Source: Escherichia virus TH41
Strand: one strand, 5' to 3'
Sequence record: MT446412.1
Length of the DNA: 64,000 bases
Shown: positions 7,843-38,981 of the stretch, piece by piece
How the letters are laid out: each line of letters opens with the position of its first letter
Numbering within the stretch: position 1 is the stretch's first letter
Translations under genes and position numbers: made by a program
Notes under the pieces: generated by a model
Told to the model about the DNA's origin: nothing
Seen by the model: only the letters and a program-made list of their open reading frames with translations
The model's database searches: none

Positions 7843-7867
7843 TGCTTTGTATCAAGGATGATATAAT
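7843..7867 (+). promoter_or_regulatory. Candidate MotA-dependent middle promoter (TGCTT box, 14-nt gap, TATAAT) upstream of gene 55
   Basis: TGCTT 7843-7847 and TATAAT 7862-7867; same 14-nt gap as sites at 20200 and 38957. Confidence 0.4.
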
Positions 7868-7890
7868 ATTCATATACTAAGTGAGGCGAT

Positions 7891-8448
7891 ATGAACGAAA
7901 TTAAATTAACCAAGAATAACTATGTAAATAATAAAGAGCTTTTGAAAGCTATTTCGGAGTGGAAACAGAAGCTGAATGCGAACACCGACCCGAACAAAAT
8001 TATTCGCCAGAACGATGTTATTGGTCTGGCGATTATGCTTATAGCCGAAGGTCTTAGCAAACGTTTCAACTTCTCCGGATATACCCAATCCTGGAAGCAA
8101 GAAATGATTGCTGACGGTATTGAGGCCGCAATAAAAGGTCTTCACAACTTCGACGAAACAAAATACGATAATCCACATGCTTACATAACAATGGCTTGCT
8201 TCAATGCTTTCGTTCAGCGTATCAAAAAAGAACGTAAAGAAATGGCAAAGAAATATAGCTACTTCGTCCATAACGTATATGATTCACGTGACGACGATAT
8301 GGTGGCTCTGGCTGATGAAACATTTATCCAGGACATCTATGACAAAATGACACAGTACGAATCCTCTTTAGTTAAAGCGCCAGGGTCTGATAAGAGCGCC
8401 AAAGATAAAGAAGGTGATTTGGATTTTTTATATGGAACATCAATTTGA
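7891..8448 (+). CDS. 55: Late-transcription sigma factor gp55
   Basis: 185 aa (same length as T4 gp55); position between nrdH region and gene 47. Confidence 0.88.
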
Positions 8449-8665
8449 TATTACCGATTTTTTAGATAAAATCGAGGAAGACTTTACGGCTCTCCCATAT
8501 TTCATTAAACTTTATCTGCGAGACATAAAAGGTCTTCCAATTGATATCGACCCTTTAAACGTCCGGAATCTGGAATTTACTTCTCCGGACAATAACGTTG
8601 ATTACCGTTATCATGTGGATAATGCTAATCTATATTTTACAATTGAGTTAACTCCCAAGGATTAA
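8432..8665 (+). CDS. Hypothetical protein (77 aa)
   Basis: First ATG in track ORF; overlaps gp55 3' end. Confidence 0.4.
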
Positions 8666-8666
8666 T

Positions 8667-8978
8667 ATGCAAGCTCCAGATATTTCTCAACTGACCGATA
8701 AGCAGATTGAAGAAGCACAGGAACGTCTCGAAGAAGCGAACGCACTCGAAGCAACCAGTCAAGCAGCGAAGATTCTGAAAAAGAATGCTCGTGAAATTGC
8801 ACGACTGAATAAGCATGCTCAAGGCGCAGTGCTGGAAAACAATTTTGAAGCATACAAATACGCTTTAGTTAAACTGCGTGGGATTTACCGCCAACCCGTT
8901 ACGGAAGACCTGATTAAGTTGATGTGGGATTCTACTCGCAAACAAATTTGGGAAATCGTAAATGGCATTAGTAAATAA
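8667..8978 (+). CDS. Hypothetical protein (103 aa)
   Basis: ORF track; AAGGA upstream. Confidence 0.5.
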   Translation: MQAPDISQLTDKQIEEAQERLEEANALEATSQAAKILKKNAREIARLNKHAQGAVLENNFEAYKYALVKLRGIYRQPVTEDLIKLMWDSTRKQIWEIVNGISK

Positions 8979-9162
8979 ACCCTTTAAACGGCTTCTTATT
9001 GGAGCCGCTTTCAGACTTCGCTCATATGGTAATATCTGTATCAAGCAGACCGAAACCGAATACAAAATGATGGGCCAATATTCTGATGGTATTTTTAAGA
9101 TTGAGCCTGTAGCCAAGGTTTGGGTAGATTCTCATCAACTTAAGAAATGGTGGCAACGATGA
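8962..9162 (+). CDS. Hypothetical protein (66 aa)
   Basis: ORF track. Confidence 0.35.
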   Translation: MALVNKPFKRLLIGAAFRLRSYGNICIKQTETEYKMMGQYSDGIFKIEPVAKVWVDSHQLKKWWQR

Positions 9163-9220
9163 TAACATGGACAGGTGGCTAATGAACGACGAACATCCAG
9201 ATTTTTAAGAGGTCATATGA

Positions 9221-9394
9221 ATGACGAATTCGACGGATTTTGATAAGATTAAATCTGACAAAAACGAGATGATTCTTCAATTTGAAGCTGCTCGTATTAA
9301 AGCAGAAAATGAAGGTACTATTACCTATAAGCCTATCAAGTTCAGGTCTTCTCACGAACCTCTGTACGGTGTATTAATTGGAAAGGAAGCCTAG
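9221..9394 (+). CDS. Hypothetical protein (57 aa)
   Basis: ATG preceded by GAGG at 8-nt spacing; followed by terminator. Confidence 0.4.
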   Translation: MTNSTDFDKIKSDKNEMILQFEAARIKAENEGTITYKPIKFRSSHEPLYGVLIGKEA

Positions 9395-9407
9395 TGCTTC
9401 CTTTTTT
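9385..9407 (+). terminator. Rho-independent terminator (GGAAGC-CTAGT-GCTTCC + T6)
   Basis: Perfect 6-bp stem followed by TTTTTT. Confidence 0.7.
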
Positions 9408-9451
9408 GCTTTATATTCGGGATGATAAAATGAACCAACTGAGGAGAGTAT

Positions 9452-9595
9452 ATGGAATTATTTTTAGGATATGTCGTGTTATTCATGGCATTCTACACAT
9501 TCACAAGAGCTTGTTGGATAGGATTCTTTTCTACTCCTGACGGGTTCATTTCAGTAATTTTATTTTGCATTGCAATAACGGTGCTTGGCTTATGA
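9452..9595 (+). CDS. Hypothetical small membrane protein (47 aa)
   Basis: Strong SD GAGGAG 7 nt before ATG; hydrophobic; ATGA overlap with gene 47 start. Confidence 0.45.
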   Translation: MELFLGYVVLFMAFYTFTRACWIGFFSTPDGFISVILFCIAITVLGL

Positions 9596-10871: not shown

Positions 10872-11070
10872 ACATGATTTTCATATTGGCGATGGCTGGT
10901 TCGGTAATGTAGAATGGGACGTGGATGGTTCTTGGTATACCGGAACTATGTATGTCACTTCTGAATATTCTGAAGGTGTTTCATGGGCCATGGAACTTGA
11001 CGACGTGTTTGCTTCTTCCGAAGAAATGCTAGAATATGCTGAACAAACAATTCGTGAGAACAATACATGA
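10858..11070 (+). CDS. Hypothetical protein (70 aa)
   Basis: ORF track frame; start uncertain among 10846/10858/10864. Confidence 0.4.
   Translation: MKMYKHDFHIGDGWFGNVEWDVDGSWYTGTMYVTSEYSEGVSWAMELDDVFASSEEMLEYAEQTIRENNT
11009..11035 (+). promoter_or_regulatory. Candidate middle promoter (TTTGCTTCT box, 15-nt gap, TAGAAT) upstream of gene 46
   Basis: TGCTT 11010-11014, TAGAAT 11030-11035; gap is 1 nt longer than the other three candidates. Confidence 0.25.
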
Positions 11071-12749
11071 AAACGTTTAAGTTAAAGAAAGTAACGTATA
11101 AAAATATTATGTCGGTAGGCCAGCAACCTATTACAATCCAACTTGATAAGGTCCAAAAGACCTTAGTCACCGGTAAAAATGGCGCTGGGAAATCTACGTT
11201 CCTTGAAGCTGTTACATTTGCTCTGTTTGGTAAGCCTTTTCGTGATGTTAAGAAAGGGCAATTAATTAACTCAAGTAACAAGAAAGACCTTTTGGTCGAA
11301 CTGTGGATGGAATATGATGGAAAAGAATACTATATCAAACGCGGGCAAAAACCCAATGTTTTTGAAATCTCTTGTGGCGGTAAACGTCTTGATGAATCTG
11401 CCAGCAGTAAAGACTTCCAAGCGGAATTTGAACAGCTCATCGGAATGTCCTATGCAAGCTTCAAACAAATTGTCGTACTCGGCACAGCTGGATATACCCC
11501 TTTTATGGGCCTATCCACTCCTGCAAGAAGAAAACTCGTCGAAGACCTTTTAGAGGTTTCTGTACTGGCCGATATGGATAAGCTGAACAAATCTCTTATC
11601 CGCGAAGTCAATAGTCAAATCCAGGTGCTGGATGTGCAGCATGATGGTATTGTTCAACAGATTAAAATCTATCAGGACAACGAAGACCGTCAAAGAAAAT
11701 TATCAGGTGATAATCTGTTGCGGCTGCAAACGATGTATGATGAACTTGCCACAGAAGCACGTGGAATCAAAACGACTATCGAAGAAGCAACGACAAGACT
11801 GACCGAGATAATCTTGGGAGAAGACCCTGAGCATGAACTCACGAAGTTAAAGCAAGAATCATTCCTGATTAAGTCGAAGATAGACGATTACCGAAAGGTT
11901 GTTGGTCTGTACGAGAAAGGTGGTTGTTGTCAGACTTGTGCCAGCCAGTTGCATCCAGGAGACCCTATTGTCGCCAGGATTGAGTCAAAGATTGAAGAAT
12001 GTAATGTATCAGCTGATAACCATAAAGCTCGCCAGAACGCTGTTCAGGAGCAATTTGATGCGTATTCTGCTGCAAGACAAAAACAACGTACAATAGCTCA
12101 AGACATTCAAACTAAGAAACAAACCTTAGTTCAGACTGTCGAAAAAGCTAAAAAGGTTAAAGCATTAATCGAGCAAGCTAAGTCAGAATTCATTGACCAT
12201 GCGGCAGACATTAAAATGCTTCAAGACCAGCTTGATAAAATAGTCAAACAGAAATCCGACCTTGTGATGGAAAAATATCAACGTGGTATCCTAACGGATA
12301 TGTTGAAAGATTCCGGTATCAAAGGTGCGATTATTAAGAAATATATTCCTATCTTTAATAAGCAGATAAATGCTTACCTTAAAGTTATGGAAGCTGATTA
12401 TAGTTTTACGTTAGATGAAGAGTTCAACGAAACGATTAAATCTCGTGGACGTGAAGACTTCAGCTATGCATCATTTAGCCAGGGTGAAAAAGCTCGTATC
12501 GATATTGCATTGCTGTTTACATGGCGTGATATTGCTGCGAAAGTATCTGGTGTTAATATTAACACCTTGATTCTGGACGAAGTTTTCGATTCAGCTACTG
12601 ATGTAGAGGGGGTTAAAGCAATTGCTACCATCCTGAACAAATTGGAAGACACCAACATCTTTATTATCAGTCACCGAGACCATGACCCGGAAGCATACGG
12701 GCAACATCTCCAGATGAAAAAAGTTGGTCGATTCACTGTTATGGAATAA
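11067..12749 (+). CDS. 46: Recombination endonuclease subunit gp46 (Rad50/SbcC-like ATPase)
   Basis: 560 aa (same as T4 gp46); Walker A GKNGAGKST; C-terminal LILDEVFD. Confidence 0.95.
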   Translation: MKTFKLKKVTYKNIMSVGQQPITIQLDKVQKTLVTGKNGAGKSTFLEAVTFALFGKPFRDVKKGQLINSSNKKDLLVELWMEYDGKEYYIKRGQKPNVFEISCGGKRLDESASSKDFQAEFEQLIGMSYASFKQIVVLGTAGYTPFMGLSTPARRKLVEDLLEVSVLADMDKLNKSLIREVNSQIQVLDVQHDGIVQQIKIYQDNEDRQRKLSGDNLLRLQTMYDELATEARGIKTTIEEATTRLTEIILGEDPEHELTKLKQESFLIKSKIDDYRKVVGLYEKGGCCQTCASQLHPGDPIVARIESKIEECNVSADNHKARQNAVQEQFDAYSAARQKQRTIAQDIQTKKQTLVQTVEKAKKVKALIEQAKSEFIDHAADIKMLQDQLDKIVKQKSDLVMEKYQRGILTDMLKDSGIKGAIIKKYIPIFNKQINAYLKVMEADYSFTLDEEFNETIKSRGREDFSYASFSQGEKARIDIALLFTWRDIAAKVSGVNINTLILDEVFDSATDVEGVKAIATILNKLEDTNIFIISHRDHDPEAYGQHLQMKKVGRFTVME

Positions 12750-12783
12750 TGCTTTAAACAAGGATGTTATAATAGAGGCTATT

Positions 12784-12975: not shown

Positions 12976-12999
12976 TTGATAATGAATAGAGAGAATATT

Positions 13000-16325: not shown

Positions 16326-16346
16326 AAAGGGACTTCGGTCCCTTTT
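16326..16346 (+). terminator. Rho-independent terminator (GGGAC-TTCG-GTCCC + TTTT)
   Basis: UUCG tetraloop hairpin with T-run; TATAAT follows at 16351-16356. Confidence 0.7.
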
Positions 16347-16407
16347 GTAGTATAATAGCGTCAAGTCATAAAACAAAAGTCAATCACTCGACTATAAAGG
16401 AAATCAA

Positions 16408-20197: not shown

Positions 20198-20224
20198 ATT
20201 GCTCTAAAAATACAGTGATATAAT
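20198..20224 (+). promoter_or_regulatory. Candidate MotA-dependent middle promoter upstream of uvsX (TTGCTC box, 14-nt gap, TATAAT)
   Basis: TGCTC 20200-20204, TATAAT 20219-20224; same gap as gene 39 and gene 55 candidates. Confidence 0.4.
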
Positions 20225-25659: not shown

Positions 25660-26019
25660 ATGAGTTATTATAATTTTCTGAATTTTGAACTGGCGAGCAA
25701 TAATGATGGTAATGCTCATTATGAATTTCGTGAGCCACGGTTTAATCAAGCGATTGGTTATATTATCGTCAAAGATGATGTTATCATAAAGGCTCGCTCA
25801 TTTATGGTAATGAATGGACCTTATGAAGATACTCGCGGCTATCCATTTGATAAAAAGAATGTGCGCGATTGTGCAGCATGGATAACCGGAAACCCCGAAA
25901 TTGGGGTCATGATATCTACTGAAGCGAATGACATTCTGGAAGGGGTTTGGGCCAAAGCTCAAGAATCGTCTATTGCTATTGACGACCAGATTTTTAATGC
26001 CTTCATGAAACGAGGTTAA
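25660..26019 (+). CDS. Hypothetical protein (119 aa) flanked by 36-bp direct repeats
   Basis: ORF track; C-terminus DDQIFNAFMKRG. Confidence 0.5.
   Translation: MSYYNFLNFELASNNDGNAHYEFREPRFNQAIGYIIVKDDVIIKARSFMVMNGPYEDTRGYPFDKKNVRDCAAWITGNPEIGVMISTEANDILEGVWAKAQESSIAIDDQIFNAFMKRG
25979..26014 (+). repeat. 36-bp direct repeat, copy 2
   Basis: 35/36 identical to 25618-25653. Confidence 0.85.
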
Positions 26020-26020
26020 T

Positions 26021-26242
26021 ATGTTTGTTTTAACTCAATTTTCTAAAGCAACATATAGCTACTCTTGTCAATGGGAAGTCTTCATTGATACACCGTCTCC
26101 CAAGTATGGAGTTTTCGGACGAGTAACTACACAAGCTTATGTTGCGCGACCAACCAAACGTCAGATTCGTAAGCTTAAAAAGGCGCATCGCCAACTGATT
26201 AAAAGAAGGGAACAATATGAGTGCAATGTGTACGGGCTCTAA
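26021..26242 (+). CDS. Hypothetical basic protein (73 aa)
   Basis: ORF track. Confidence 0.45.
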   Translation: MFVLTQFSKATYSYSCQWEVFIDTPSPKYGVFGRVTTQAYVARPTKRQIRKLKKAHRQLIKRREQYECNVYGL

Positions 26243-28059: not shown

Positions 28060-28075
28060 ACATCCTCCTTTCTTG

Positions 28076-28082
28076 TATTTAT
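28076..28082 (-). promoter_or_regulatory. Late-promoter-like motif (cATAAATA, 7/8 of TATAAATA) upstream of the minus-strand pair
   Basis: Read on minus strand about 17 nt upstream of ATG 28059. Confidence 0.3.
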
Positions 28083-28143
28083 GCTTTAAACCAATACGAT
28101 ATAATTAACATACAAACAACATGAATTGATAAGGAAAAATATA

Positions 28144-28662: not shown

Positions 28663-28943
28663 TGGCTCGTTTAAATAAACGTCAGCTTAAGAAAGCTCGC
28701 AAGAAATATATTAACGATATAATTGAAAATGTTAATACCGAAATCTTCGTAGAACTCTTATCTAATCAACTAAAACATTTATCTAAACATGAAATTGATA
28801 TGAATACTGAAAATGCTAAAAATGTAATTGAAACTCATAATGCTTTTGCTAATGCAACAGCAGAATGGATGGCGAATCCTACTGCTGAAAATCTAGCTAA
28901 AATGACTGAAGCCAATAAAGCAGTTCAAGCCATCAAATTGTAA
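28662..28943 (+). CDS. Hypothetical protein (93 aa)
   Basis: ORF track; TAATG overlap with gene 56. Confidence 0.5.
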   Translation: MARLNKRQLKKARKKYINDIIENVNTEIFVELLSNQLKHLSKHEIDMNTENAKNVIETHNAFANATAEWMANPTAENLAKMTEANKAVQAIKL

Positions 28944-28945
28944 GT

Positions 28946-28953
28946 TATAAATA
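28946..28953 (+). promoter_or_regulatory. Late promoter TATAAATA upstream of soc
   Basis: Exact TATAAATA 31 nt before soc ATG. Confidence 0.6.
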
Positions 28954-28984
28954 CACCTGTAATTAAACAACAAAGGAGTTAATT

Positions 28985-29218
28985 ATGGGTGGTTTCGTTA
29001 ATATCAAAACCTTTACGCATCCAGCTGGTGAAGGTAAAGAAGTTAAAGGTGTTGAAGTATCTGTTCCGTTTGAAATCTATTCAAATGAGCACCGTATTGC
29101 CAATGCTCATTATCAGACTTTTCCTTCCGAAAAGGCCGCTTATGTCACCGTAGCGTCTAGTGCAGCTGATTGGCGAACTAAGAACGCGGCGATGTTTACG
29201 CCTACCCCAGTAGTTTAA
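28985..29218 (+). CDS. soc: Small outer capsid protein Soc
   Basis: 77 aa; VNIKTF and AHYQTFPSEKAAY blocks match remembered T4 Soc. Confidence 0.8.
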   Translation: MGGFVNIKTFTHPAGEGKEVKGVEVSVPFEIYSNEHRIANAHYQTFPSEKAAYVTVASSAADWRTKNAAMFTPTPVV

Positions 29219-29223
29219 TTATA

Positions 29224-29246
29224 GGGAACCTTCGGGTTCCCTTTTT
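29224..29246 (+). terminator. Rho-independent terminator (GGGAACC-TTCG-GGTTCCC + T5)
   Basis: 7-bp stem, UUCG loop, T-run, directly after soc. Confidence 0.75.
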
Positions 29247-29294
29247 GCTTTTAATAGAAGCGGTATAATTATTTCAATTACAGAGGAGAATACT

Positions 29295-29492
29295 ATGTTA
29301 AACCGTTGGATTAAACCAAATAAAACTTTAGATGAAGTTATTGCCCATGATGTCCATTTTAAGTATGGTCTGGGTGTGTTTGATGAGGTTGTCGTACATT
29401 CATTCATGATGCACGATGATGATTCTTTAGAATTCAATATTGAAATCCGTTGTGATGATGGTAAAGTTGAATTTAAACGAGGTTTTCTATGA
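29295..29492 (+). CDS. Hypothetical protein (65 aa)
   Basis: ATG preceded by GAGGAG; TATAAT at 29264-29269. Confidence 0.5.
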   Translation: MLNRWIKPNKTLDEVIAHDVHFKYGLGVFDEVVVHSFMMHDDDSLEFNIEIRCDDGKVEFKRGFL

Positions 29493-29830
29493 TTAGTTGG
29501 CTCAAGAATTTATTCAAGACCAAACCGAATGAAGGTGTGGTTCCCGTTAGCCTACCGGATGTTAAGCTAAGAGAATATGTTTACATGGGCGATGGCATGA
29601 TGGAAGAAGTGGTCAAATCAAAATCAAAAGACCTATATTCTACAATGTCAGAAGAAGACTTACAAAAACGTTTAACTCGACTGCAAGAACAAAGAGCTCA
29701 AGCCCAAAGCAGTATCGATACTACTTCGATTGTGGTTACCGCTGCTGCAGTTAGTTCGTGGACTGGTGATTCGTCTTATTCCTCCTATGATTCAGGAAGC
29801 TGCGATTCGTCTTCCAGCTCGTGTGATTAA
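29489..29830 (+). CDS. Hypothetical protein (113 aa), Ser/Cys-rich C-terminus
   Basis: ORF track; ATGA overlap. Confidence 0.5.
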   Translation: MISWLKNLFKTKPNEGVVPVSLPDVKLREYVYMGDGMMEEVVKSKSKDLYSTMSEEDLQKRLTRLQEQRAQAQSSIDTTSIVVTAAAVSSWTGDSSYSSYDSGSCDSSSSSCD

Positions 29831-30025
29831 ATGAGAATTACAAGTTGGCTTAAAGATTGGTTGGTTACTCCAGGGATTGATGATTCCTGGGTGGCCAGAG
29901 CCGAGGAAGAAATGCAGCGCGAAGCTGAAGAATGGGCTGCTACAGGGCTTAAAGCTATGCAGGAAAAGAAGACCGAACGAGCTGCGCTTAAACTGATGCG
30001 TGATATCTACGGAGATAAATCATGA
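29831..30025 (+). CDS. Hypothetical protein (64 aa)
   Basis: ORF track. Confidence 0.45.
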
Positions 30026-30171
30026 CACAAGAAGAAGCTGAACGCCGGGCAAAAGAAGCACTGGATTTGCTTTTGAAAATTGGCAGTAAAATGATGGAAG
30101 AAAATGAAAAGTACATCAAGGAAAATAAAGTTCCTGATGGTCCATTAGTTGGTAAGAGGAAAACATTATGA
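30022..30171 (+). CDS. Hypothetical protein (49 aa)
   Basis: ATGA overlaps on both sides; under track cutoff. Confidence 0.35.
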
Positions 30172-30656
30172 AAGTATATGAATTAGAATTCTATGTCCGT
30201 GATTCTGCTGGGCAAACACGACCTTACGATGCAACAGCCTGTCTTATCTTTGCATATAATGGCATGGATTCGGTTACTGAGTTGGAAACAAAATTAATGA
30301 ACCTGACGATGCCAGAAAACGTTATGCTGAAGGTATTTCATAGAAAAAACGTTAATGTGGCTGAAGGGTGTCCGTTTACTGTTTCCGAAGCTCTGCATAT
30401 CAAAGGCTATCGTCACCCGGACCCATATGCAGAAGGTACTGCGGATATTTTCTATAAAGATAGAGATAAAATGGCCACTGAACGTCTCCAAGGTCGCACA
30501 TATCTGATTTCCACTACCGACGACCTTGCTGAAGTTGAACGTCAGATTTGGAAGCACTTTGATATCGGCTTGCGCTTTACTTTAACAGAAGAAGCTATTC
30601 AAGATACTAAAATGCGTGCTCGTATGTATGGTTACGGTCCTATCGGTGGCTACTAA
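30168..30656 (+). CDS. Hypothetical protein (162 aa); size and position correspond to T4 mrh
   Basis: ORF track; synteny only. Confidence 0.55.
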
Positions 30657-30835
30657 TGGATTTATTTGAACTTTTTGAAGAGCCTAAAGCTCCTACGGAA
30701 GCCCGTGTGGACCTAGTTGACGAACTTGATGCGATTATACAGAAGCATGGTTTTAGTCTCCCAATGGAAGTTCTACGCGACCTGGCCTCATATTACGACG
30801 ACCCACCTCCATGGGCACCATGGGTGAAACGATGA
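30656..30835 (+). CDS. Hypothetical protein (59 aa)
   Basis: TAATG overlap upstream, ATGA overlap downstream. Confidence 0.4.
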   Translation: MDLFELFEEPKAPTEARVDLVDELDAIIQKHGFSLPMEVLRDLASYYDDPPPWAPWVKR

Positions 30836-31065
30836 ACTGGTTAACAAATATCCCCACATCGGCGCTGGATATCGACCGTAAACACGCTCATAAGGAAATT
30901 GAGCAACAAAAAATTAATCGCTTACAAAGGATTAAGACTGAATCCAAGACAATTAAAGCCGAACGCCCGACAGAATCGAAAAGTTCTTACTCATCATATC
31001 AATCTCCGATTGGCATGGCCGCAGACATTGCAGTCTTTGGCGTCCCACTTGGAGTATTTAAGTAG
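30832..31065 (+). CDS. Hypothetical protein (77 aa)
   Basis: ATG within track ORF 30811..31065. Confidence 0.45.
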   Translation: MNWLTNIPTSALDIDRKHAHKEIEQQKINRLQRIKTESKTIKAERPTESKSSYSSYQSPIGMAADIAVFGVPLGVFK

Positions 31066-31121
31066 TTTACTTACTCCCCTCCTAATGACATAATGGTCTT
31101 TCTTACAACAGAGAGGCCATT

Positions 31122-31682
31122 ATGAACATCATCAAATCTGATACCGAACCCAACCAGTTAAAATTTAATGAAATGGAGATAGCTTCATTATTTGAATGCC
31201 GCGCATCAAAGGTTGATAAGACCTTACATTCAAACATCAACTCAATCATCAAGTCAAGGTTGTCTATACCTGATACAGTCTTGTATCGTGGGGTAACCCA
31301 GCAAGAGATTGATTTGTTAGATGAAGCAAAAGAATCAATGCAACCTTTTGAATTTGGAAGGATAACCTCCTTTACAGAAGACTATGGTATTGCCAGGGAT
31401 TTTGCTGCAATGGAATATGTGTCAAGGACTATCATCAGATTGAATCATACAAAAGCTTTTTGTTATCATGATGCGATGCGCAAAATCGCGCTTGACGTTC
31501 CACTGGAATTCTTCAATACAGCCTCTGGTTCCGAACAGGCAGCAACGTTAAGGCGTGAAGAATACATGGACATGATTGATTCTGAGCTTGAATGGTTTGT
31601 TCCAGTTGACCAGAAATTCGTGATAGTTGATGCTGGATTTGTTGATGATTATTATGTTCTTGACTGTGTACAAGAGCAATAA
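31122..31682 (+). CDS. modA: ADP-ribosyltransferase, ModA-like
   Basis: 186 aa; R-S-E triad candidates LYRG, ITSFTED, ELEWFVP; adjacent paralog; syntenic with T4 modA/modB. Confidence 0.6.
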   Translation: MNIIKSDTEPNQLKFNEMEIASLFECRASKVDKTLHSNINSIIKSRLSIPDTVLYRGVTQQEIDLLDEAKESMQPFEFGRITSFTEDYGIARDFAAMEYVSRTIIRLNHTKAFCYHDAMRKIALDVPLEFFNTASGSEQAATLRREEYMDMIDSELEWFVPVDQKFVIVDAGFVDDYYVLDCVQEQ

Positions 31683-31695
31683 GACACGTTAAGAT
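31666..31695 (+). promoter_or_regulatory. Early promoter GTGTAC-N18-TAAGAT inside 3' end of modA-like gene
   Basis: Followed by leader TCCTATCAACTACTGATGAGGATAATAAA and ATG 31727. Confidence 0.5.
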
Positions 31696-31726
31696 GTTCC
31701 TATCAACTACTGATGAGGATAATAAA

Positions 31727-32341
31727 ATGCTGTACACTGATGACGTTTTGAATGGAATTATTGACATTGCCGCTTCTAGTGAGTCTTTTCGTAACCAATG
31801 TCAAGCGGAGATTGATGCTCTTTATACAGATAATGAACAATCAGTACTCTGGCAGTGTATGGAAAATAAACCCGACCTGATTCAAGAAGACTTAACCAGG
31901 ATTATCCGCAACAATCTGAATACTGCACCACCTGCGGCATTGTTCCGTGGTATATCAAAGAAAACTATGGAATACCTGGAAGATTTCAGATATGTTGGTG
32001 CAACGATTGAGTTCAATCGTGTGATGAGTTTTTCCAGGGACTGGCAGGTTGCAAGAAATTTCGCATCATACAGTTTCTATGGCACAAGGAATATTTTCTG
32101 CATAAACAATGCACCATATGCGTATAACTATCAGGAAGCAATCTTTAAAATGATTTGTGGCGCTCCTCCTGAAGAGTTCAATGGTGCATATCCAGAAGCA
32201 ACCAGGAAGTCAAACTTACACCTGGTTAATGATGAGGATGAGTTTATGTTTCCCGCTGGGACTACGCTTCGCGTAGACTTGATTGAGACACACCCATTGA
32301 ATAACCTTTATACTGTTTGGCATTTGACTGTTTTGAACTAA
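31727..32341 (+). CDS. modB: ADP-ribosyltransferase, ModB-like
   Basis: 204 aa; LFRG, MSFSRD, EDEFMFP motifs; ATG follows conserved leader (track start 31694 is upstream). Confidence 0.6.
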   Translation: MLYTDDVLNGIIDIAASSESFRNQCQAEIDALYTDNEQSVLWQCMENKPDLIQEDLTRIIRNNLNTAPPAALFRGISKKTMEYLEDFRYVGATIEFNRVMSFSRDWQVARNFASYSFYGTRNIFCINNAPYAYNYQEAIFKMICGAPPEEFNGAYPEATRKSNLHLVNDEDEFMFPAGTTLRVDLIETHPLNNLYTVWHLTVLN

Positions 32342-32400
32342 CTAAAGACCTTAGAACCATTATACACAGTAAAAATAAAAGCGTTAAAGGCGAAAAAGTA

Positions 32401-32429
32401 GTGTACACACCCAATGGATGGTGTATAAT
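32401..32429 (+). promoter_or_regulatory. Early promoter GTGTAC-N17-TATAAT
   Basis: Preceded by AAAAGTA; followed by GAATCCATACTGAGTT block; ATG 32477. Confidence 0.6.
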
Positions 32430-32476
32430 GAATCCATACTGAGTTGCCAAATCGTCCGTAAGATGAGAAAAATATC

Positions 32477-33223
32477 ATGACTTTATCAAAAACCAAAACG
32501 TTGAAAGTTAAACGTCGTCTGGAACACACTCAAGCTTCCGCTAAACGCCGCGGTAAAGACTTTAACCTGGATTTTGATTATCTGGTTAATATTCTTGACC
32601 AAAAAGTTTGTGCTTATTCTGGTGAGACATTTAATAACTCTATTGAAGGTGAGAAGTTATCATTAGAGCGTTTTAACAATGATATTGGTTATATCAAGGG
32701 TAATGTTATTCCTGTTAAAAAGAAATACAATACCATGCGTTCTGATTGGTCCTTGGATGAGCTTAAACAACGTCGCGATGATGTTGCTGTAAAAATTGCT
32801 CGCCCCTCTGCCAAGAAGATTGAAAAGTTAAATCTGACTTCAGAGAAATGGGAACAGATTAAAAAGTCATATACTCATATCAAGAACATCCAGCACAAAC
32901 GTGATAATCGCGTTAAGCATTATGCTCAAATGAGTAAATCAGAGCAGTCCAAAGAAAACCAATTAAAAATGGTTGCTCTGAAGGCTCGCATTGATGGTTC
33001 CCGTGTTGCGGAAGGACATGAGCTTACTAAATTGAATGTCCTGCTCAAAGGTAATGACTGGAAAGTTACCAAGAAATTAACTGATGCTGAAACGCTTTTT
33101 GATTGCTATGATAAAATCATTCAAGGTCTTGAGCGTTTTGAGAAGATTGGTTTTATTGGTAAATTAAAACTGAAACGTGGTCTGCCTTTGAACGCGTCAA
33201 TTTTTAAACTGATTAGAGGTTAA
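32477..33223 (+). CDS. Hypothetical basic protein (248 aa); position corresponds to T4 srd
   Basis: ORF track; synteny only. Confidence 0.55.
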   Translation: MTLSKTKTLKVKRRLEHTQASAKRRGKDFNLDFDYLVNILDQKVCAYSGETFNNSIEGEKLSLERFNNDIGYIKGNVIPVKKKYNTMRSDWSLDELKQRRDDVAVKIARPSAKKIEKLNLTSEKWEQIKKSYTHIKNIQHKRDNRVKHYAQMSKSEQSKENQLKMVALKARIDGSRVAEGHELTKLNVLLKGNDWKVTKKLTDAETLFDCYDKIIQGLERFEKIGFIGKLKLKRGLPLNASIFKLIRG

Positions 33224-33227
33224 TGTG

Positions 33228-33524
33228 ATGTACTACGCATATGTGCTGGTTCACAAAGATAAAGATGGTTTTGAACGCCCATTGGAGTATGATGGAAAGG
33301 TTACCTTATACACCACAAAACCGGGCGCAGAGTATGAACTTGCCAACTATTTATATACTACAAACCGCTATTTACGCATGGGACGTATTGAAACACGGTA
33401 TACTCCCAGAAAATGGTGGTTTGATAAGCGGGAAACAAAAACTGTTTTTCCTACTGAAGAACACGCACGAGAATTGAAATTAGTTTTAGATACTTTATAT
33501 GTTAAGCGAGTAAAATTGGCATGA
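33228..33524 (+). CDS. Hypothetical protein (98 aa)
   Basis: ATG preceded by GAGG; track start 33225 is GTG. Confidence 0.45.
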   Translation: MYYAYVLVHKDKDGFERPLEYDGKVTLYTTKPGAEYELANYLYTTNRYLRMGRIETRYTPRKWWFDKRETKTVFPTEEHARELKLVLDTLYVKRVKLA

Positions 33525-34849
33525 TTAAATTTGAAGACTTGAACACAGGACAAAAAGAAGCTTTTGATTATATCACTGAAGCTATTCAGCGACGTTCAGG
33601 GGAATGTATCACTCTGAATGGTCCAGCTGGTACAGGTAAGACCACTCTGACAAAATTTGTCATTGACCATCTAGTGCGTAATGGAGTTATGGGAATTGTG
33701 CTTGCTGCGCCAACTCACCAGGCGAAAAAAGTTTTATCTAAATTGTCTGGTCAAACCGCGAATACAATCCATAGTATCCTGAAGATTAACCCGACCACAT
33801 ATGAAGACCAAAACGTTTTTGAACAACGCGAAATGCCTGACATGTCAAAATGCAATGTTCTGGTTTGTGATGAAGCAAGTATGTATGACGGGTCTCTGTT
33901 TAAGATTATTCTTAACTCTGTTCCTGAATGGTGTACTATTCTTGGGATTGGTGATATGCACCAGCTGCAGCCAGTTGACCCAGGAAGCACACAACAAAAG
34001 ATAAGCCCATTCTTTACGCATCCTAAGTTCAAACAGATTCATCTGACTGAGGTCATGCGAAGCAATGCTCCTATCATTGAAGTGGCGACAGAAATTCGTA
34101 ATGGTGGTTGGTTCCGTGACTGTATGTATGATGGTCATGGTGTACAGGGTTTCACCTCACAAACCGCTTTAAAGGATTTCATGATAAACTATTTCAGTAT
34201 TGTAAAAGATGCTGATATGTTGATGGAAAACAGGATGTATGCGTACACGAATAAATCAGTTGAAAAACTGAACAATATTATTCGTCGCAAGCTCTATGAA
34301 ACGGATAAAGCATTTTTACCGTATGAAGTCCTGGTTATGCAAGAGCCACACATGAAAGAGCTGGAATTTGAAGGCAAGAAATTCAGCGAAACCATTTTTA
34401 ATAATGGTCAGTTGGTTCGCATCAAGGATTGCAAATACACTTCCACCATTCTCCGTTGTAAAGGCGAATCGCACCAGTTAGTGATTAATTACTGGGACCT
34501 GGAAGTTGAGTCAATTGATGAAGATGAAGAATATCAGGTTGACCGCATTAAAGTTTTACCAGAAGACCAGCAACCAAAATTCCAGGCATATCTGGCTAAA
34601 GTTGCTGACACATACAAACAGATGAAAGCCGCTGGTAAACGTCCGGAGTGGAAAGACTTCTGGAAAGCTCGCCGGACCTTCTTGAAAGTTCGTGCTCTTC
34701 CGGTCAGTACAATTCACAAGGCCCAGGGCGTTTCAGTGGACAAAGCATTCATCTATACTCCATGCATCCATATGGCCGAAGCTTCATTAGCGAGCCAGTT
34801 GGCTTATGTAGGAATCACACGAGCGAGGTACGACGCATATTATGTATAA
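33521..34849 (+). CDS. dda: DNA helicase Dda (SF1)
   Basis: 442 aa; Walker A GPAGTGKTT, blocks AAPTHQAKK, LKINP, FHKAQG, YVGITRAR match T4 Dda. Confidence 0.93.
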   Translation: MIKFEDLNTGQKEAFDYITEAIQRRSGECITLNGPAGTGKTTLTKFVIDHLVRNGVMGIVLAAPTHQAKKVLSKLSGQTANTIHSILKINPTTYEDQNVFEQREMPDMSKCNVLVCDEASMYDGSLFKIILNSVPEWCTILGIGDMHQLQPVDPGSTQQKISPFFTHPKFKQIHLTEVMRSNAPIIEVATEIRNGGWFRDCMYDGHGVQGFTSQTALKDFMINYFSIVKDADMLMENRMYAYTNKSVEKLNNIIRRKLYETDKAFLPYEVLVMQEPHMKELEFEGKKFSETIFNNGQLVRIKDCKYTSTILRCKGESHQLVINYWDLEVESIDEDEEYQVDRIKVLPEDQQPKFQAYLAKVADTYKQMKAAGKRPEWKDFWKARRTFLKVRALPVSTIHKAQGVSVDKAFIYTPCIHMAEASLASQLAYVGITRARYDAYYV

Positions 34850-35087
34850 AGTACATAAAGAAGATTTAGATACTCTTATCTATGGTATTCAGGACGCGGT
34901 TGAATTTTTCGAAGATAATCCGACTATCGTCGTGCAGGGTAATTACGTTTTACTGGAACTGAATCTTATTCGGAAACGTATGGCCGCGATTGAATATTTT
35001 AACAATGAAGAGCCAGGGATTTTTATCTCCGACTATGTTGCTGGTGAAATTCAGAAATTAAAAGAGATGTGCGATGGTTGCTGGTGA
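34842..35087 (+). CDS. Hypothetical protein (81 aa); 3' end lies in 40-bp tandem duplication
   Basis: ORF track. Confidence 0.45.
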   Translation: MYKVHKEDLDTLIYGIQDAVEFFEDNPTIVVQGNYVLLELNLIRKRMAAIEYFNNEEPGIFISDYVAGEIQKLKEMCDGCW

Positions 35088-35116
35088 AATTCAAAAATTA
35101 AAAGAGATGTGCGATG
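35037..35116 (+). repeat. Tandem duplication, 2 x 40 bp (one mismatch) spanning the dexA start
   Basis: Units 35037-35076 and 35077-35116; unit 2 ends with the dexA ATG. Confidence 0.9.
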
Positions 35117-35797
35117 ATTGATGCTATTATTGACTTTGAAACTCTGGGAAACGGCTCGAAGGGAGCCGTTATTGACCTGGCTCTGATTACATTCGAATCT
35201 GACCCTGCTATTGTGGAATCATTCGAAACCCTGGTTAATCGCGGCAAACGTATCAAGTTTAGCCTTGAATACCAAAAAGGTAAGCGTCTGTTCGATACAA
35301 CAACCATGAGTTGGTGGAAAAAGCAATCAGCAGAAGCCCGTGTTAACTTGGCTCCTTCTGCGCAAGATGTTGATACTCTGACCGGTATCCAACAGGCAAT
35401 TGATTATCTGAATGGTAATGGAATTAACAAATACGAAAGCCTTATGTGGTGTCGTGGAATGTCTTTTGACTTCCCGTTGTTTGTTGACCTTATCCGTGAC
35501 CTACAGCGCAATGAGGGTATTCCCGAGCGTGAATTGAATACATATGGCCTGGAGCCGGTTGTATTCTGGAACCAGCGAGATATCAGGACAGCAATCGAAG
35601 CCCTATCACTCGTCCGTAAGATGTGTGAAACTCCATTACCAAAGGGGGCTTTAGATGGATTTGTGGCGCATGATTCGGTGCATGACTGCGCGAAAGATAT
35701 TTTGATGCTTAAGTATGCCCAGCGCTATGCTCTTGGTTTGGATGAAGTTCCTTCCGAAGAAGATGCAGACCCGTTATCTTTACCGAAAAAACGATAA
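35114..35797 (+). CDS. dexA: Exonuclease A (DexA, DEDD 3'-5' exonuclease)
   Basis: 227 aa (same as T4 DexA); N-terminal IDFETLG motif. Confidence 0.85.
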   Translation: MIDAIIDFETLGNGSKGAVIDLALITFESDPAIVESFETLVNRGKRIKFSLEYQKGKRLFDTTTMSWWKKQSAEARVNLAPSAQDVDTLTGIQQAIDYLNGNGINKYESLMWCRGMSFDFPLFVDLIRDLQRNEGIPERELNTYGLEPVVFWNQRDIRTAIEALSLVRKMCETPLPKGALDGFVAHDSVHDCAKDILMLKYAQRYALGLDEVPSEEDADPLSLPKKR

Positions 35798-35803
35798 AAA
35801 GTA

Positions 35804-35833
35804 GTGTACAAGGCCAATGGAAAGAGACATAAT
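35804..35833 (+). promoter_or_regulatory. Early promoter GTGTAC-N18-CATAAT
   Basis: Preceded by AAAAAGTA; leader CATCTCATCAACTACTGATGAGGATAACAAA; ATG 35865. Confidence 0.6.
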
Positions 35834-35864
35834 CATCTCATCAACTACTGATGAGGATAACAAA

Positions 35865-36122
35865 ATGATTACTTCTTTTGAAATTGGCCAACAATATGAA
35901 ATGTCTGCTTTTCAAGCTGCTGAAGCAGGTCTGACTGAAGCGTTTGAATGTGCATTTACAAATATTCGTGGTAAAATCTTTACTGTCAATAAAATTGCGG
36001 TATATGATAAAGAAACAGACATGAACAAAGGCATCTACTTGAACGTGTCAAACGCAAAAGGCCGTCGTGAAATTATGGTTGTACAACCTAACCAACTGGC
36101 GATGTTCAATAAGGTTACATAA
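35865..36122 (+). CDS. Hypothetical protein (85 aa)
   Basis: ATG after conserved leader; in frame with track ORF 35817..36122. Confidence 0.5.
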   Translation: MITSFEIGQQYEMSAFQAAEAGLTEAFECAFTNIRGKIFTVNKIAVYDKETDMNKGIYLNVSNAKGRREIMVVQPNQLAMFNKVT

Positions 36123-36877
36123 TGAAACCAGAATTTATTGACTTTGATGTTGTAAGCATGTATGTTCGCCCAATTAAACCATTAAAACTTGAGAAACAAA
36201 ATATGACTATTGAAATTAACAAAACTTATCAACTGATTGAACCTATTATTCAAAACGCAGCTATGGTTTCTGGGTATAATACTCTGACTGATGCTTTAGG
36301 CGAAGGTGAATTTATTGTTGAAACTTTTGTAAAAAGTAACTGGTTTGATAAAGCATATATTTTGCATGCACGTCGCCTTGATACAAATGAAGTAGAAAAA
36401 ATTATGGTTTATGAAGCTGAGATTGAACTCTTCAAAGAAGTTGAAGAAACTCCCATCAAAGTTGGTAAAACCTATCAGCTTATTGAAGATGCCAGTCAGT
36501 TTGGAAAGACTGTTGCAATGCATGCCGGGTGGCGGGTACTGAAAGGTATTTTTGGATTTGCTCCATTTACCGTTAAAACAGTTAAGTACCACAATCACCA
36601 AAGCATCTTTGAATTTACTGCGGTCAATGAATCAGGTGACAATCTTGAAGCTATCCTTTATCCGCGTGAATCTGTACTGCTGGAAGAAGTTAGCGAGCTT
36701 GGCGACCCTATTGACTTGCTATGTAAACCAGTTCAAATCAAACGCCCATTTAACAGTTCCATTTGTGGTTGGGTAACAGACCAGTGGATTGAAGATGGTG
36801 TTGAACTCCTGAACGTTGTTCATTGTGGTAGTTTTACTGTTGTACCACGTTCCATGGTTGTTGAAATTTTTAATTAA
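36122..36877 (+). CDS. Hypothetical protein (251 aa), C-terminal domain paralogous to next ORF
   Basis: C-terminus GWVTDQWIEDGVELLNVVHCGSFTVVPRSMVVE vs GYITDQWVEEGVKLYNIVFLGTFKVVPESFIVE. Confidence 0.55.
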   Translation: MKPEFIDFDVVSMYVRPIKPLKLEKQNMTIEINKTYQLIEPIIQNAAMVSGYNTLTDALGEGEFIVETFVKSNWFDKAYILHARRLDTNEVEKIMVYEAEIELFKEVEETPIKVGKTYQLIEDASQFGKTVAMHAGWRVLKGIFGFAPFTVKTVKYHNHQSIFEFTAVNESGDNLEAILYPRESVLLEEVSELGDPIDLLCKPVQIKRPFNSSICGWVTDQWIEDGVELLNVVHCGSFTVVPRSMVVEIFN

Positions 36878-36881
36878 ATTT

Positions 36882-36911
36882 GTGTACAAACTCGTGGGGC
36901 CAGAGTATAAT
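36882..36911 (+). promoter_or_regulatory. Early promoter GTGTAC-N18-TATAAT with -10 inside inverted repeat GTGGGGCC/GGTCCCAC
   Basis: Read directly; ATG 36954. Confidence 0.6.
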
Positions 36912-36953
36912 GGTCCCACTGGAGAATAAACTTATTAATCAAGAGAGAAAATT

Positions 36954-37445
36954 ATGAAAGTTGAAGCTGGTGATATTGTACGCGTTTCTAAAGAATCTCG
37001 TTCTAAAGCTGCTGGTCGTTTTGTTGAGGTTGTGGGTCTTCGCACTAATTTAGTAGGTGGAATTAAAGAAGTTAAAGTGCGTATTATTCCTAAAAATGGC
37101 CAGACTGAAACTCAATTGGCTTATGTACATCCTAAATTCCTGGAATCAACTGAATTTACTGGATATATCGCTCCTGTGGTTGAAGAAGTTGAAACCATTG
37201 ACCAGTCTCATGTTGGGGTTGATTTTAAATGGAAATTAGGTAAAGGTGTCTTTTTCGTTTCACCTAAACCGTTTGAATACAATTGCAAGTATGGTCCGAC
37301 TTATGAAACCACTAGCATGTCTGGTTATATCACAGACCAGTGGGTTGAAGAAGGGGTTAAACTGTATAATATTGTGTTCCTTGGAACCTTTAAGGTTGTT
37401 CCTGAAAGTTTTATCGTTGAGTATGCTGATATTCATTTTGCCTAA
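36954..37445 (+). CDS. Hypothetical protein (163 aa); size and position resemble T4 motB
   Basis: ORF track; paralogous C-terminus with 36122..36877. Confidence 0.55.
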   Translation: MKVEAGDIVRVSKESRSKAAGRFVEVVGLRTNLVGGIKEVKVRIIPKNGQTETQLAYVHPKFLESTEFTGYIAPVVEEVETIDQSHVGVDFKWKLGKGVFFVSPKPFEYNCKYGPTYETTSMSGYITDQWVEEGVKLYNIVFLGTFKVVPESFIVEYADIHFA

Positions 37446-37495
37446 ATTATAAAATAATGATAGGGTAATTTTGCCCTATCAATGAGGAGAATATT

Positions 37496-37726
37496 ATGTT
37501 TAATGAAGATTGCGTGACCACTTCCCTGACCGCTGAAGAGTTCTGGGAAACCGCTGAAAGTGATAAAGTGATTGTTAAGAAAAACATCAATGAATTTCTT
37601 TGCACCACTGATATCATTTATGTGTATGCGTATGAAGGCGCGGAATTACCTAGCTATGCACTGTTCCGTGAAGAATCAGAAGATGGCACAGATTTTTGGA
37701 AGGAGACTTATCATGTTGAAATTTGA
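37496..37726 (+). CDS. Hypothetical protein (76 aa)
   Basis: ATG preceded by GAGGAG. Confidence 0.5.
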   Translation: MFNEDCVTTSLTAEEFWETAESDKVIVKKNINEFLCTTDIIYVYAYEGAELPSYALFREESEDGTDFWKETYHVEI

Positions 37727-38087
37727 AACTGATAAATGGTATTATTTTAAAGATAATGTTGCTGAAAGCAGATTTCGTTTGTTATGCTCTGATAATGATA
37801 ATATAGCTGATGCTATAATCAATGGTGAAGGATTTAGACCAGTCGGAATTGAAGGTGGTGATGTATATCGGATAGAATTTTCGACCGGTGGAATAGAGAG
37901 AATATTCATAAAGGAAGATGAGCGTCGTTTCTTTGAAGAAGAAAAAGATGACGATACTGAAGACGAATGCGAAGACGCTGATGAAGCATTTGAACCAAGC
38001 GAATTCCCTTTGACTAAAATCACCATTTCTAATAACTCTGAAGCCTGGACCGTTTACCAGATGTTGAAAGCACACTTTAAGGAATAA
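37713..38087 (+). CDS. Hypothetical acidic protein (124 aa)
   Basis: ATG preceded by AAGGAG; track start 37572 is upstream read-through. Confidence 0.5.
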   Translation: MLKFETDKWYYFKDNVAESRFRLLCSDNDNIADAIINGEGFRPVGIEGGDVYRIEFSTGGIERIFIKEDERRFFEEEKDDDTEDECEDADEAFEPSEFPLTKITISNNSEAWTVYQMLKAHFKE

Positions 38088-38088
38088 C

Positions 38089-38265
38089 ATGCCACTTTAT
38101 GATTACAAATGCCAATCCAATGACTGCGCGAAAGAATACGAAAAAATCAAGAAAATCTCTGAAAGAGATAATGATGTTTGCCCTGATTGCCATCGGCTGG
38201 CTGTTCGGTTAGTCTCGGCTCCTAAACATGTTAATGGCGGTTTTTACGACCTGCTGACTAAGTGA
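38089..38265 (+). CDS. Zinc-ribbon protein (FmdB-like CxxC...CxxC, 58 aa)
   Basis: MPLYDYKCQSNDCAKEYE...CPDCH pattern; ATG preceded by AGGA; under track cutoff. Confidence 0.5.
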   Translation: MPLYDYKCQSNDCAKEYEKIKKISERDNDVCPDCHRLAVRLVSAPKHVNGGFYDLLTK

Positions 38266-38271
38266 GGAATT

Positions 38272-38532
38272 ATGAAATACATTAATCGTTCTATTGCAGC
38301 ACTGGTACTGGCGGTTTCATTGGCTGGTTGTACTGATGCAGATAATGCCATTCGTGTATTAGATGCAAACGGCTATGAGCAAATCCAAATCACCGGATAT
38401 AATTGGTTCTCTTGCGGTAAAGATGATTTTCAACACACAGGTTTTACAGCCGTGGGCCCAACTGGTAAGAAAGTTGAAGGAACCGTTTGTTCTGGATTGC
38501 TGTTTAAGAATTCAACCATCCGATTCGAATGA
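38272..38532 (+). CDS. Putative lipoprotein (86 aa)
   Basis: Signal peptide with lipobox LAGC. Confidence 0.5.
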   Translation: MKYINRSIAALVLAVSLAGCTDADNAIRVLDANGYEQIQITGYNWFSCGKDDFQHTGFTAVGPTGKKVEGTVCSGLLFKNSTIRFE

Positions 38533-38539
38533 GGATATT

Positions 38540-38938
38540 ATGTTTAAAATTGGAAAGAGTTATTGCATTAAAGATTTAGATGGCTTCCTTAAACATGTCG
38601 GTATGCCTGGTAGCATTTTGAACCAACAAGGAACCTCTATCATTGATTTGGTTACTACCAAAGAGTTTTCAGTCACTAAGATGGAAGCAAATGTTGTTAC
38701 GGAATTTAGTACTATAGATGGAACTGGATTTTCTTTCCATAGTCGTAATGGAACCGGTCTTATTTTTGGTGATGAATTTAAATATTTTGAAGAAGTCCCG
38801 GAATGTGATTCTGAAATAACCGAACAGGAATCAAAAGAGGATATCGTTGTTACCGGCGGCGATGTTATTATTACGGTTAAAACTGAAGCCGGCCGTCTAC
38901 AAGCTATTAAAATGTTAGAGCAGCTTCGATTCAAATAA
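38540..38938 (+). CDS. Hypothetical protein (132 aa)
   Basis: ATG preceded by GAGGA; track start 38363 is in-frame read-through. Confidence 0.5.
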   Translation: MFKIGKSYCIKDLDGFLKHVGMPGSILNQQGTSIIDLVTTKEFSVTKMEANVVTEFSTIDGTGFSFHSRNGTGLIFGDEFKYFEEVPECDSEITEQESKEDIVVTGGDVIITVKTEAGRLQAIKMLEQLRFK

Positions 38939-38957
38939 AAGGCCTTCGGGCCTTTTT
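38937..38957 (+). terminator. Rho-independent terminator (GGCC-TTCG-GGCC + T5)
   Basis: UUCG hairpin with T-run directly after stop. Confidence 0.65.
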
Positions 38958-38981
38958 GCTTTAAAATATGTGACTTATAAT
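38955..38981 (+). promoter_or_regulatory. Candidate MotA-dependent middle promoter upstream of gene 39 (TTTGCTTTA box, 14-nt gap, TATAAT)
   Basis: Exact match to remembered MotA-box consensus; TATAAT 38976-38981. Confidence 0.5.

Follow-up and report, generated by a model that had tools for sequence, protein, structure and literature searches.

Candidate MotA/AsiA-dependent middle promoters ahead of genes 55, uvsX, and 39 in a T4-like Gaprivervirus phage

Are the short motifs that precede genes 55, uvsX, and 39 in Escherichia virus TH41 middle promoters of the kind that phage T4 activates with its proteins MotA and AsiA? The question arises from a stretch of 64,000 nucleotides (nt) of this phage (sequence record MT446412.1), which was analyzed in full and is called the window below. 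An earlier note on the window had described a MotA-type box, 14 nt, and TATAAT ahead of each of the three genes, at coordinates that proved exact when checked against the sequence. We conclude that the three sites are very probably MotA/AsiA-dependent middle promoters of a T4-like Gaprivervirus phage. The nearest relative is Escherichia phage UPEC01 (MW233709.1; Straboviridae, Tevenvirinae, Gaprivervirus), to which the window is 99.3% identical across its first 41 kb and ∼92% identical within the tail fiber genes, with one 5-kb piece that is 100% identical; on this sequence comparison, the window is a segment of a T4-like Gaprivervirus genome.

Elements, spacing, and frequency of the sites

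All three sites (see the table) have an exact TATAAT as the -10 element, separated by 12 bp from a 9-bp box. Compared with the MotA-box consensus (a/t)(a/t)(a/t)TGCTT(t/c)A, centered near -30, the gene 39 box (tttTGCTTtA) agrees at 10 of 10 positions, and the uvsX (aatTGCTCtA) and gene 55 (taaTGCTTtg) boxes agree at 9 of 10 each. The TGCTT-type core that had been ascribed to all three therefore holds for two of them, the uvsX box actually reading TGCTC; single box changes are tolerated in T4 (PMC2988021). The gene 55 site is intergenic, beginning directly past the stop codon of a DUF7200 open reading frame (ORF; 7576-7842), and its -10 element ends 23 nt ahead of the ATG at 7891. The uvsX and gene 39 sites stand 53 nt and 22 nt ahead of the ATG codons at 20278 and 39004, respectively. 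Each of the three precedes a prereplicative gene on the early/middle strand, and the earlier assignment of these genes as 55, uvsX, and 39 agrees with protein identities to T4 of 79% (gp55), 80% (UvsX), and 71% (gp39). The hexamer GTTTAC, found 8 to 9 nt upstream of the box at the gene 55 and uvsX sites, was considered as an extra element and judged a coincidence, because it falls within the upstream ORFs, at their 3' ends, and the uvsX promoter of the closest relative (L047) lacks it.

The -35 position at the three sites showed no match to TTGACA or to the early-type -35 element of the phage (GTGTACA at N17). A generic σ70 -35/-10 scan of positions 28000 to 40000 picked up neither the gene 39 site nor other middle-type sites; promoter-like sites were not enriched in the generic scan (40 versus 33 ± 5), which is informative only for the absence of a -35 element. 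The early promoters of the phage are built differently, with GTGTACA 16 to 18 nt ahead of TATAAT and an inverted repeat that puts the -10 element in a stem-loop, for example, GGGGTCagagTATAATGACCCC; we take this structure to resemble the "promoter-early stem-loop" cassettes of T4-type phages. The three sites are thus like T4-type early promoters in their σ70 -10 element and their strand but have neither GTGTACA nor a -10 stem-loop.

The sites are far beyond chance. TGCTY-N14-TATAAT occurs four times in the window against 0.10 expected, and none of 100 shuffles reached four. When TGCTT-Nx-TATAAT was counted on both strands for x from 8 to 21, the + strand yielded three, three, and two matches at x = 13, 14, and 15 and none at x = 8 to 12 or 16 to 21, and the - strand yielded none at any of these spacings; the expectation per spacing and strand was 0.02 to 0.08. 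The eight perfect TGCTT-N13-15-TATAAT sites start at 2366, 7843, 12750, 28082, 29246, 38957, 48928, and 61873. A position matrix was trained on 46 of the 58 mapped T4 middle promoters (start positions as given in Table 1 of PMC2988021, with the sequences taken from the T4 record) and applied with a threshold of at least 14 bits, dinucleotide shuffles serving as the background. In the window, it matched 20 + strand sites and 3 - strand sites, compared with 1.5 ± 1.2 matches in shuffles. In whole genomes, the counts on the early versus the other strand were 52 versus 4 for UPEC01 and 62 versus 6 for T4. The window has the gene order of T4, read on the opposite strand; its + strand carries early and middle genes, nrdC through asiA, up to ∼53.5 kb, and the late genes t, 38, 37, 36, 35, and 34 follow on the - strand.

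The spacing is a band of 13 to 15 nt from TGCTT, with N14 the commonest value, and is not fixed. At 14 bits or more, N14, N15, and N13 account for 12, 5, and 3 sites in the window, for 32, 13, and 7 in UPEC01, and for 38, 17, and 7 in T4. N14 after TGCTT equals 12 bp after the 9-bp box, and the rule in T4 is 12 ± 1 bp between the 9-bp box and the -10 element (PMC2988021). The "fixed" 14-nt spacing of the earlier note was overstated, since sites at N13 to N15 are present in the window and the single value was imposed by the search pattern used. As written, the pattern proposed there as a check (the 9-mer followed by N14) gave 0 matches. The equivalent form, with N11-13 after the 9-mer, matched six + strand sites and no - strand site. 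The genome-wide search proposed in the earlier note corresponds to the UPEC01 strand counts, and its outcome was positive.

Conservation of the sites and of their activators

We compared 38 distinct sequences upstream of gene 39, consisting of the window, T4, and 36 IMG/VR loci, with gp39 proteins that were 64 to 99% identical. The gap between core and -10 element was N14 in 34 sequences and N15 in 3, the remaining one having a weak N13 match. The core was TGCTT nearly always; the exceptions were AGCTT (T4 and its closest relatives) and TGCTG and TGCTA, each present in a single locus. Lineages differed in their spacer sequence and in the precise form of the -10 element. In phages with UvsX proteins 83 to 98% identical, a promoter was present 49 to 54 nt before the uvsX ATG, with an invariant TATAAT, a box reading TGCTC, TGCCT, CGCTT, or AGCTT, a gap of N13 or N14, and a variable spacer; the close genus relative L047 has N13. 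Comparison of the upstream regions of more distant phages revealed no promoter at the uvsX position. The gene 39 and uvsX sites, as read from these sequences, show clear phylogenetic footprints.

At gene 55, the pattern was less consistent. It is kept in genus relatives, with CGCTT in one of them. T4-type phages keep the TATAAT but carry the consensus TGCTTTAA box ∼10 bp, or one helical turn, further upstream, and the box at the canonical distance is nonconsensus. To judge from these sequences, the gene 55 promoter has been rebuilt between genera, because the box is canonical in the genus and displaced in T4-type phages. In the T4-type relatives (L011-L029, positions ∼870-1000), the TGCTTTAA box is ∼24 to 25 nt upstream of the -10 element rather than 14, and a conserved inverted repeat, ATAGATCT...AGATCTAT, holds the -10 element in its loop. 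This repeat is missing from the Gaprivervirus arrangement.

The MotA and AsiA genes reported earlier in the window (see the table) are recognizable by Pfam domains and by matches to T4 structures. MotA matched PDB entry 6k4y_M over its full length (E = 1e-27), and AsiA matched PDB entry 1jr5, T4 AsiA (E = 6.5e-22). Identity to the T4 proteins is 33% for MotA and 50% for AsiA, compared with 70 to 80% for neighboring core genes. In the phage collection, 33 records carried a MotA at least 95% identical to that of the window, and all MotA proteins outside the genus were below ∼43%, with no intermediates. The MotA residues that contact σ70 in the T4 complex are retained at K3, K28, F31, and D67, with V found in place of Q76 and N in place of D30; the linker, which enters the minor groove, stays basic (KKTRTKR). 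AsiA keeps E10, I17, L18, K20, and F36 among the N-terminal residues that bind σ region 4, with V14 replaced by I and F21 replaced by T; K56 and N74 are kept as well, and both R47 and R55, which contact the DNA backbone, are replaced by N. PMC6755090 describes, for the T4 complex, the roles of these MotA residues and of R47, R55, K56, and N74 of AsiA. Box composition and flanks in the UPEC01 genome closely follow those of T4, and for this reason the DNA specificity of MotA appears to be conserved despite the divergence of the protein.

From the elements, their spacing, the strand bias, the conservation, and the presence of both factors, all of which were observed, we infer that MotA would bind at the three sites and that MotA-dependent transcripts would start there. 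The scheme would be the standard sigma appropriation worked out for T4 (PMC2988021, PMC6755090). Early after infection, the phage would make AsiA and MotA. AsiA would bind and remodel region 4 of the host σ70, so that the -35 element would no longer be read, and the N-terminal domain of MotA would bind the freed σ70 C terminus. The C-terminal "double-wing" domain of MotA, together with the basic linker, would bind the box centered near -30, while the -10 element would still be read by σ region 2. Initiation ∼7 nt past the -10 element would then lead to middle-time expression of gene 55 (late sigma factor), uvsX (recombinase), and gene 39 (topoisomerase subunit). That this mechanism is probably intact had been proposed in the earlier note, and the elements, their conservation, and the full-length motA and asiA genes support the proposal at the sequence level.

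Comparison with T4 and alternative explanations

P55, PuvsX, and P39 are experimentally mapped promoters of T4 (Table 1 of PMC2988021). They share with the sites in the window the order of elements (MotA box, 12 ± 1 bp, σ70 -10 element, no -35 element), the downstream genes, and the strand, and the spacing spectrum and box composition are alike. T4 P39 can be aligned base for base with its counterpart, including a hairpin that abuts the box, but has AGCTT where the window has TGCTT. In T4, PuvsX stands 197 nt ahead of uvsX, within the segA insertion, and its spacer is 13 bp; in the window, which has no segA, the distance is 53 nt. T4 P55 has only a nonconsensus box within the spacing band of the matrix, its consensus TGCTTTAA being one helical turn upstream, whereas the consensus is at the canonical distance in the window. 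Also, the T4 starts were mapped experimentally, whereas the sites described here are known from sequence alone. In this respect they are like the MotA-box promoters that were predicted from sequence in RB69 and 44RR, T4 relatives of a different genus with MotA and AsiA orthologues (Nolan et al. 2006, PMC1524935). The consensus reported for those phages, (a/t)(a/t)(a/t)TGCTTtA-N11-13-TataAT, is the same (PMC1524935). The RB69 MotA is closer to that of T4 (blastp, E = 5e-48; PMC1524935) than is the MotA of the window (33% identity; tblastn, E = 2e-26). Phage Aeh1 is reported in the same paper to have no MotA (PMC1524935). The finding is therefore correct but textbook: the mechanism is known, and MotA-box promoters had already been predicted in other T4 relatives.

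Several points weigh against reading the three sites as MotA/AsiA-dependent middle promoters. The uvsX box is TGCTC and not TGCTT, and the gene 55 arrangement differs, by sequence comparison, from that of T4-type phages. The predicted MotA is only 33% identical to that of T4 and carries the Q76-to-V and D30-to-N changes, and of the three basic AsiA residues in contact with DNA in the T4 complex, two (R47 and R55) are lost from the predicted protein. In addition, the gene 55 and uvsX sites could also fire without MotA, because they have an extended -10 element (TGn); T4 PuvsX can be transcribed in vitro by polymerase alone (PMC6755090).

This last point is the basis of the alternative that survives best, namely, that the sites are MotA-independent extended -10 σ70 promoters, active with the unmodified host polymerase, next to which a TGCTT-like box is incidental. 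TGn stands right before TATAAT at the gene 55 and uvsX sites. However, it is absent from the gene 39 site, and the box is held at its distance in dozens of relatives in which nearby bases are not, in a spacing band from the -10 element that is exactly that of T4. TGn is itself no argument against MotA dependence, since about half of the MotA-dependent middle promoters of T4 carry it (PMC2988021), and basal early activity would be compatible with MotA/AsiA-dependent middle promoters. We consider this alternative unlikely.

We also considered that the diverged MotA may have changed its DNA specificity, leaving the TGCTT boxes as unread relics. The absence from the phage collection of any MotA more than ∼43% identical outside the genus would fit such a change, as would the lack in the genus of known hydroxymethyl-cytosine enzymes (PMC8056088). 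However, the composition, flanks, and spacing of the boxes in UPEC01 closely follow T4, the strand bias matches that of T4 in strength and would decay if unselected, and many genera with equally diverged MotA proteins keep TGCTT ahead of gene 39. These observations make relic boxes very improbable. The same can be said of chance matches in AT-rich intergenic DNA with no promoter function: short motifs are common in DNA of ∼40% G+C, and the weak gene 46 site described below is within a background in which each strand is expected to yield ∼12 matches at 10 bits or more, but this explanation failed the shuffle test (4 versus 0.10 exact matches, 20 versus 1.5 matrix matches), the strand test (exact matches all on one strand, in a three-value spacing band), and the conservation test (box and -10 element retained at gene 39 and uvsX, with divergent spacers in between).

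Further MotA-type sites and associated features of the window

The regulon to which the three sites would belong comprises ∼20 predicted promoters of this type in the window and ∼50 genome-wide. The list in the earlier note was thus correct but covered only a fraction of them, and it overlooked the exact N14 site ahead of gene 52. T4 segments containing PnrdD, PmobC, P55.8, P55.8(2), P46i(2), P43, P61, Pdda.1, Pdex.2, P39, PrIIA, P52, and P34i could be aligned to the window with their elements intact, whereas P55, P47, P46, P45.2, and P56/69 have counterparts by position only.

Table. Predicted promoters, regulator genes, and hairpin of the window, with their T4 counterparts
Feature	Position	Strand	Elements	Score	Location and relation to T4
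Gene 55 promoter	7843..7867	+	TGCTT-N14-TATAAT, extended -10 (TGa)	19.5 bits	Counterpart by position of T4 P55
uvsX promoter	20200..20224	+	TGCTC-N14-TATAAT, extended -10 (TGa)	19.4 bits	
Gene 39 promoter	38957..38981	+	tttTGCTTtA-N12-TATAAT (= TGCTT-N14), no TGn	17.3 bits	Orthologue of T4 P39
nrdD promoter	2366..2391	+	TGCTT-N15-TATAAT	14.6 bits	Inside gene 49, ahead of nrdD; orthologue of T4 PnrdD
PmobC orthologue	4031..4055	+	TGCTG-N14-TATTTT	14.7 bits	Inside nrdD; segment 97% identical
P55.8 orthologue	4347..4372	+	TGCAT-N15-TATAAT	15.9 bits	Inside nrdG
P55.8(2)	4611..4635	+	TGCTT-N14-TATTAT	22.9 bits	Inside nrdG; identical to that of T4
P47 counterpart	9407..9431	+	TGCTT-N14-TAAAAT	22.3 bits	Upstream of 47.1/47; by position
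Weak gene 46 site	11010..11035	+	TGCTT-N15-TAGAAT	11.1 bits	Gene 46 ATG at 11067; counterpart by position of T4 P46
P46i(2) orthologue	12217..12241	+	TGCTT-N14-TAAAAT	23.7 bits	Inside gene 46
P45.2 counterpart	12750..12773	+	TGCTT-N13-TATAAT	23.8 bits	Gene 46/45.2 gap; downstream ORF is Pfam Gp45_2
P43 orthologue	16331..16356	+	GACTT-N15-TATAAT, box inside UUCG hairpin (-11.5 kcal/mol)		Upstream of gene 43; aligned
P61 orthologue	25998..26022	+	TGCCT-N14-TAATAT	14.4 bits	
P56/69 counterpart	28082..28105	+	TGCTT-N13-TATAAT	17.4 bits	Upstream of gene 56 (dCTPase)
Post-soc site	29246..29269	+	TGCTT-N13-TATAAT	15.7 bits	Right after soc terminator hairpin 29223-29242
Reverse MotA-type promoter	32359..32383	-	CGCTT-N14-TATAAT	18.9 bits	modA/srd spacer, points into modA
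Pdda.1 orthologue	33093..33117	+	CGCTT-N14-TAAAAT	18.1 bits	Inside srd
Pdex.2 orthologue	34165..34190	+	CGCTT-N15-TAAACT	14.7 bits	Inside dda
PrIIA orthologue	41481..41506	+	CGCTT-N15-TAAAAT	18.0 bits	Upstream of rIIA
Gene 52 promoter	48928..48952	+	TGCTT-N14-TATAAT		Aligns with T4 P52 (orthologue)
P34i (oriG promoter) orthologue	61873..61898	+	TGCTT-N15-TATAAT	17.1 bits	Antisense in tail fiber gene 34
Early-promoter -10 hexamers	Starts 32424, 36906, 46305, 46891, 47522, 47934, 53219	+	GTGTACA and stem-loop		
UUCG-loop hairpin, terminator-like	38937..38956	+	Abuts gene 39 MotA box	-11.1 kcal/mol, z = -2.6	
motA	50792..51400	+	202 aa, GTG start	Pfam MotA_activ 43.6 bits, MotCF 37.6 bits, both above cutoffs	
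asiA	53274..53549	+	91 aa	Pfam AsiA 73.3 bits, above cutoff	

The weaker fourth site that had been placed ahead of gene 46, with a 15-nt gap, is present as described, but its score lies within the shuffle background and is not significant alone. T4 P46 is itself atypical (TACTT-N15-TATGAT). The window contains no mobC-sized ORF between nrdD and nrdG, and the post-soc site has no counterpart in Table 1 of PMC2988021.

Many relatives retain the hairpin adjoining the gene 39 box, with compensatory changes in its stem, and the same layout is found at T4 P39. Together with the hairpins at 29223-29242 and 16326-16345, it makes up a group of UUCG-tetraloop hairpins on the + strand (-11 to -14 kcal/mol) that abut or contain a MotA box. 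At the gene 39, post-soc, and gene 43 promoters, these hairpins give a terminator-then-restart layout, likewise seen at P39, P43, and P47 of T4. A search of the whole window against Rfam returned 0 matches. Gene 39 (39004-40836, + strand) is a single 610-amino-acid ORF that also spans T4 gp60, to which its C-terminal part is 71% identical over 113 amino acids; the mobA insertion and the translational bypass of gene 60 in T4 are both absent.

Some middle promoters of T4 also serve replication origins (oriF, with PuvsY, and oriG, with P34i), and the window holds the P34i orthologue; the three sites ahead of genes 55, uvsX, and 39 correspond in contrast to ordinary gene promoters. oriG, annotated in T4 gene 34, consists of a middle promoter and an unwinding element; for an origin to function, both an unwinding element downstream and a persistent R-loop are needed (PMC3016281). 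T4 P56/69 adjoins oriA, whose annotation is in T4 gene 56. Because P34i and, next to oriA, P56/69 are conserved, the origin-priming role of middle promoters may be conserved too.

The reverse-oriented site in the modA/srd spacer stands back to back with the early promoter of srd. T4 has an equivalent at the same place (AF158101, 11866-11890, + strand, 25.7 bits), and the site was present in 14 of the 14 loci found with Srd (37 to 98% identical), with a lineage-specific spacer and conserved first transcribed bases. The spacer between genes 2 and 3 contains a twin, at 75968-75993 (+) in T4 and 157262-157237 (-) in UPEC01. Both T4 reverse sites share the start region TGGTATAATG.RTCTAAGTCC.TCCA with PuvsY, the oriF promoter, and the first transcribed bases of the site in the window are common to the T4 site at the same position and PuvsY. 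Neither the modA/srd site nor its twin is in Table 1 of PMC2988021. We tentatively raise the possibility, which we hold to be less probable than its opposite, that these sites belong to a class of middle-mode antisense regulators not described before, which might, for instance, shut down modA/modB after the early period, or that they are R-loop/origin-type promoters.

In the UPEC01 genome, homologues of T4 gp42, alpha-gt, beta-gt, and Dam were not detected, whereas dCTPase, Alc, DenA, and DenB are retained, a pattern of base-modification genes that agrees with that described for the genus (PMC8056088). This combination suggests, at the level of gene content, a candidate DNA base modification other than the known hydroxymethyl-cytosine route, as in PMC8056088. 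A 167-amino-acid ORF of the window (19583-20086, + strand; phrog_1754), which had no Pfam match and no PDB match, lies between imm and uvsX, the place taken in T4 by gene 42 (dCMP hydroxymethylase) and beta-gt.

Altogether, the T4 sigma-appropriation regulon, with its ∼50 MotA-box promoters, appears to have been carried intact into Gaprivervirus, and the list of ∼20 sites is directly usable for annotation. MotA is 33% identical to its T4 counterpart, yet box, flanks, and spacing are essentially unchanged; thus, the DNA-recognition code of the double-wing domain seems to be much more conserved than its sequence. If the DNA modification of these phages truly differs from that of T4, then reading of the MotA box would not depend on glucosyl-hydroxymethyl-cytosine specifically.

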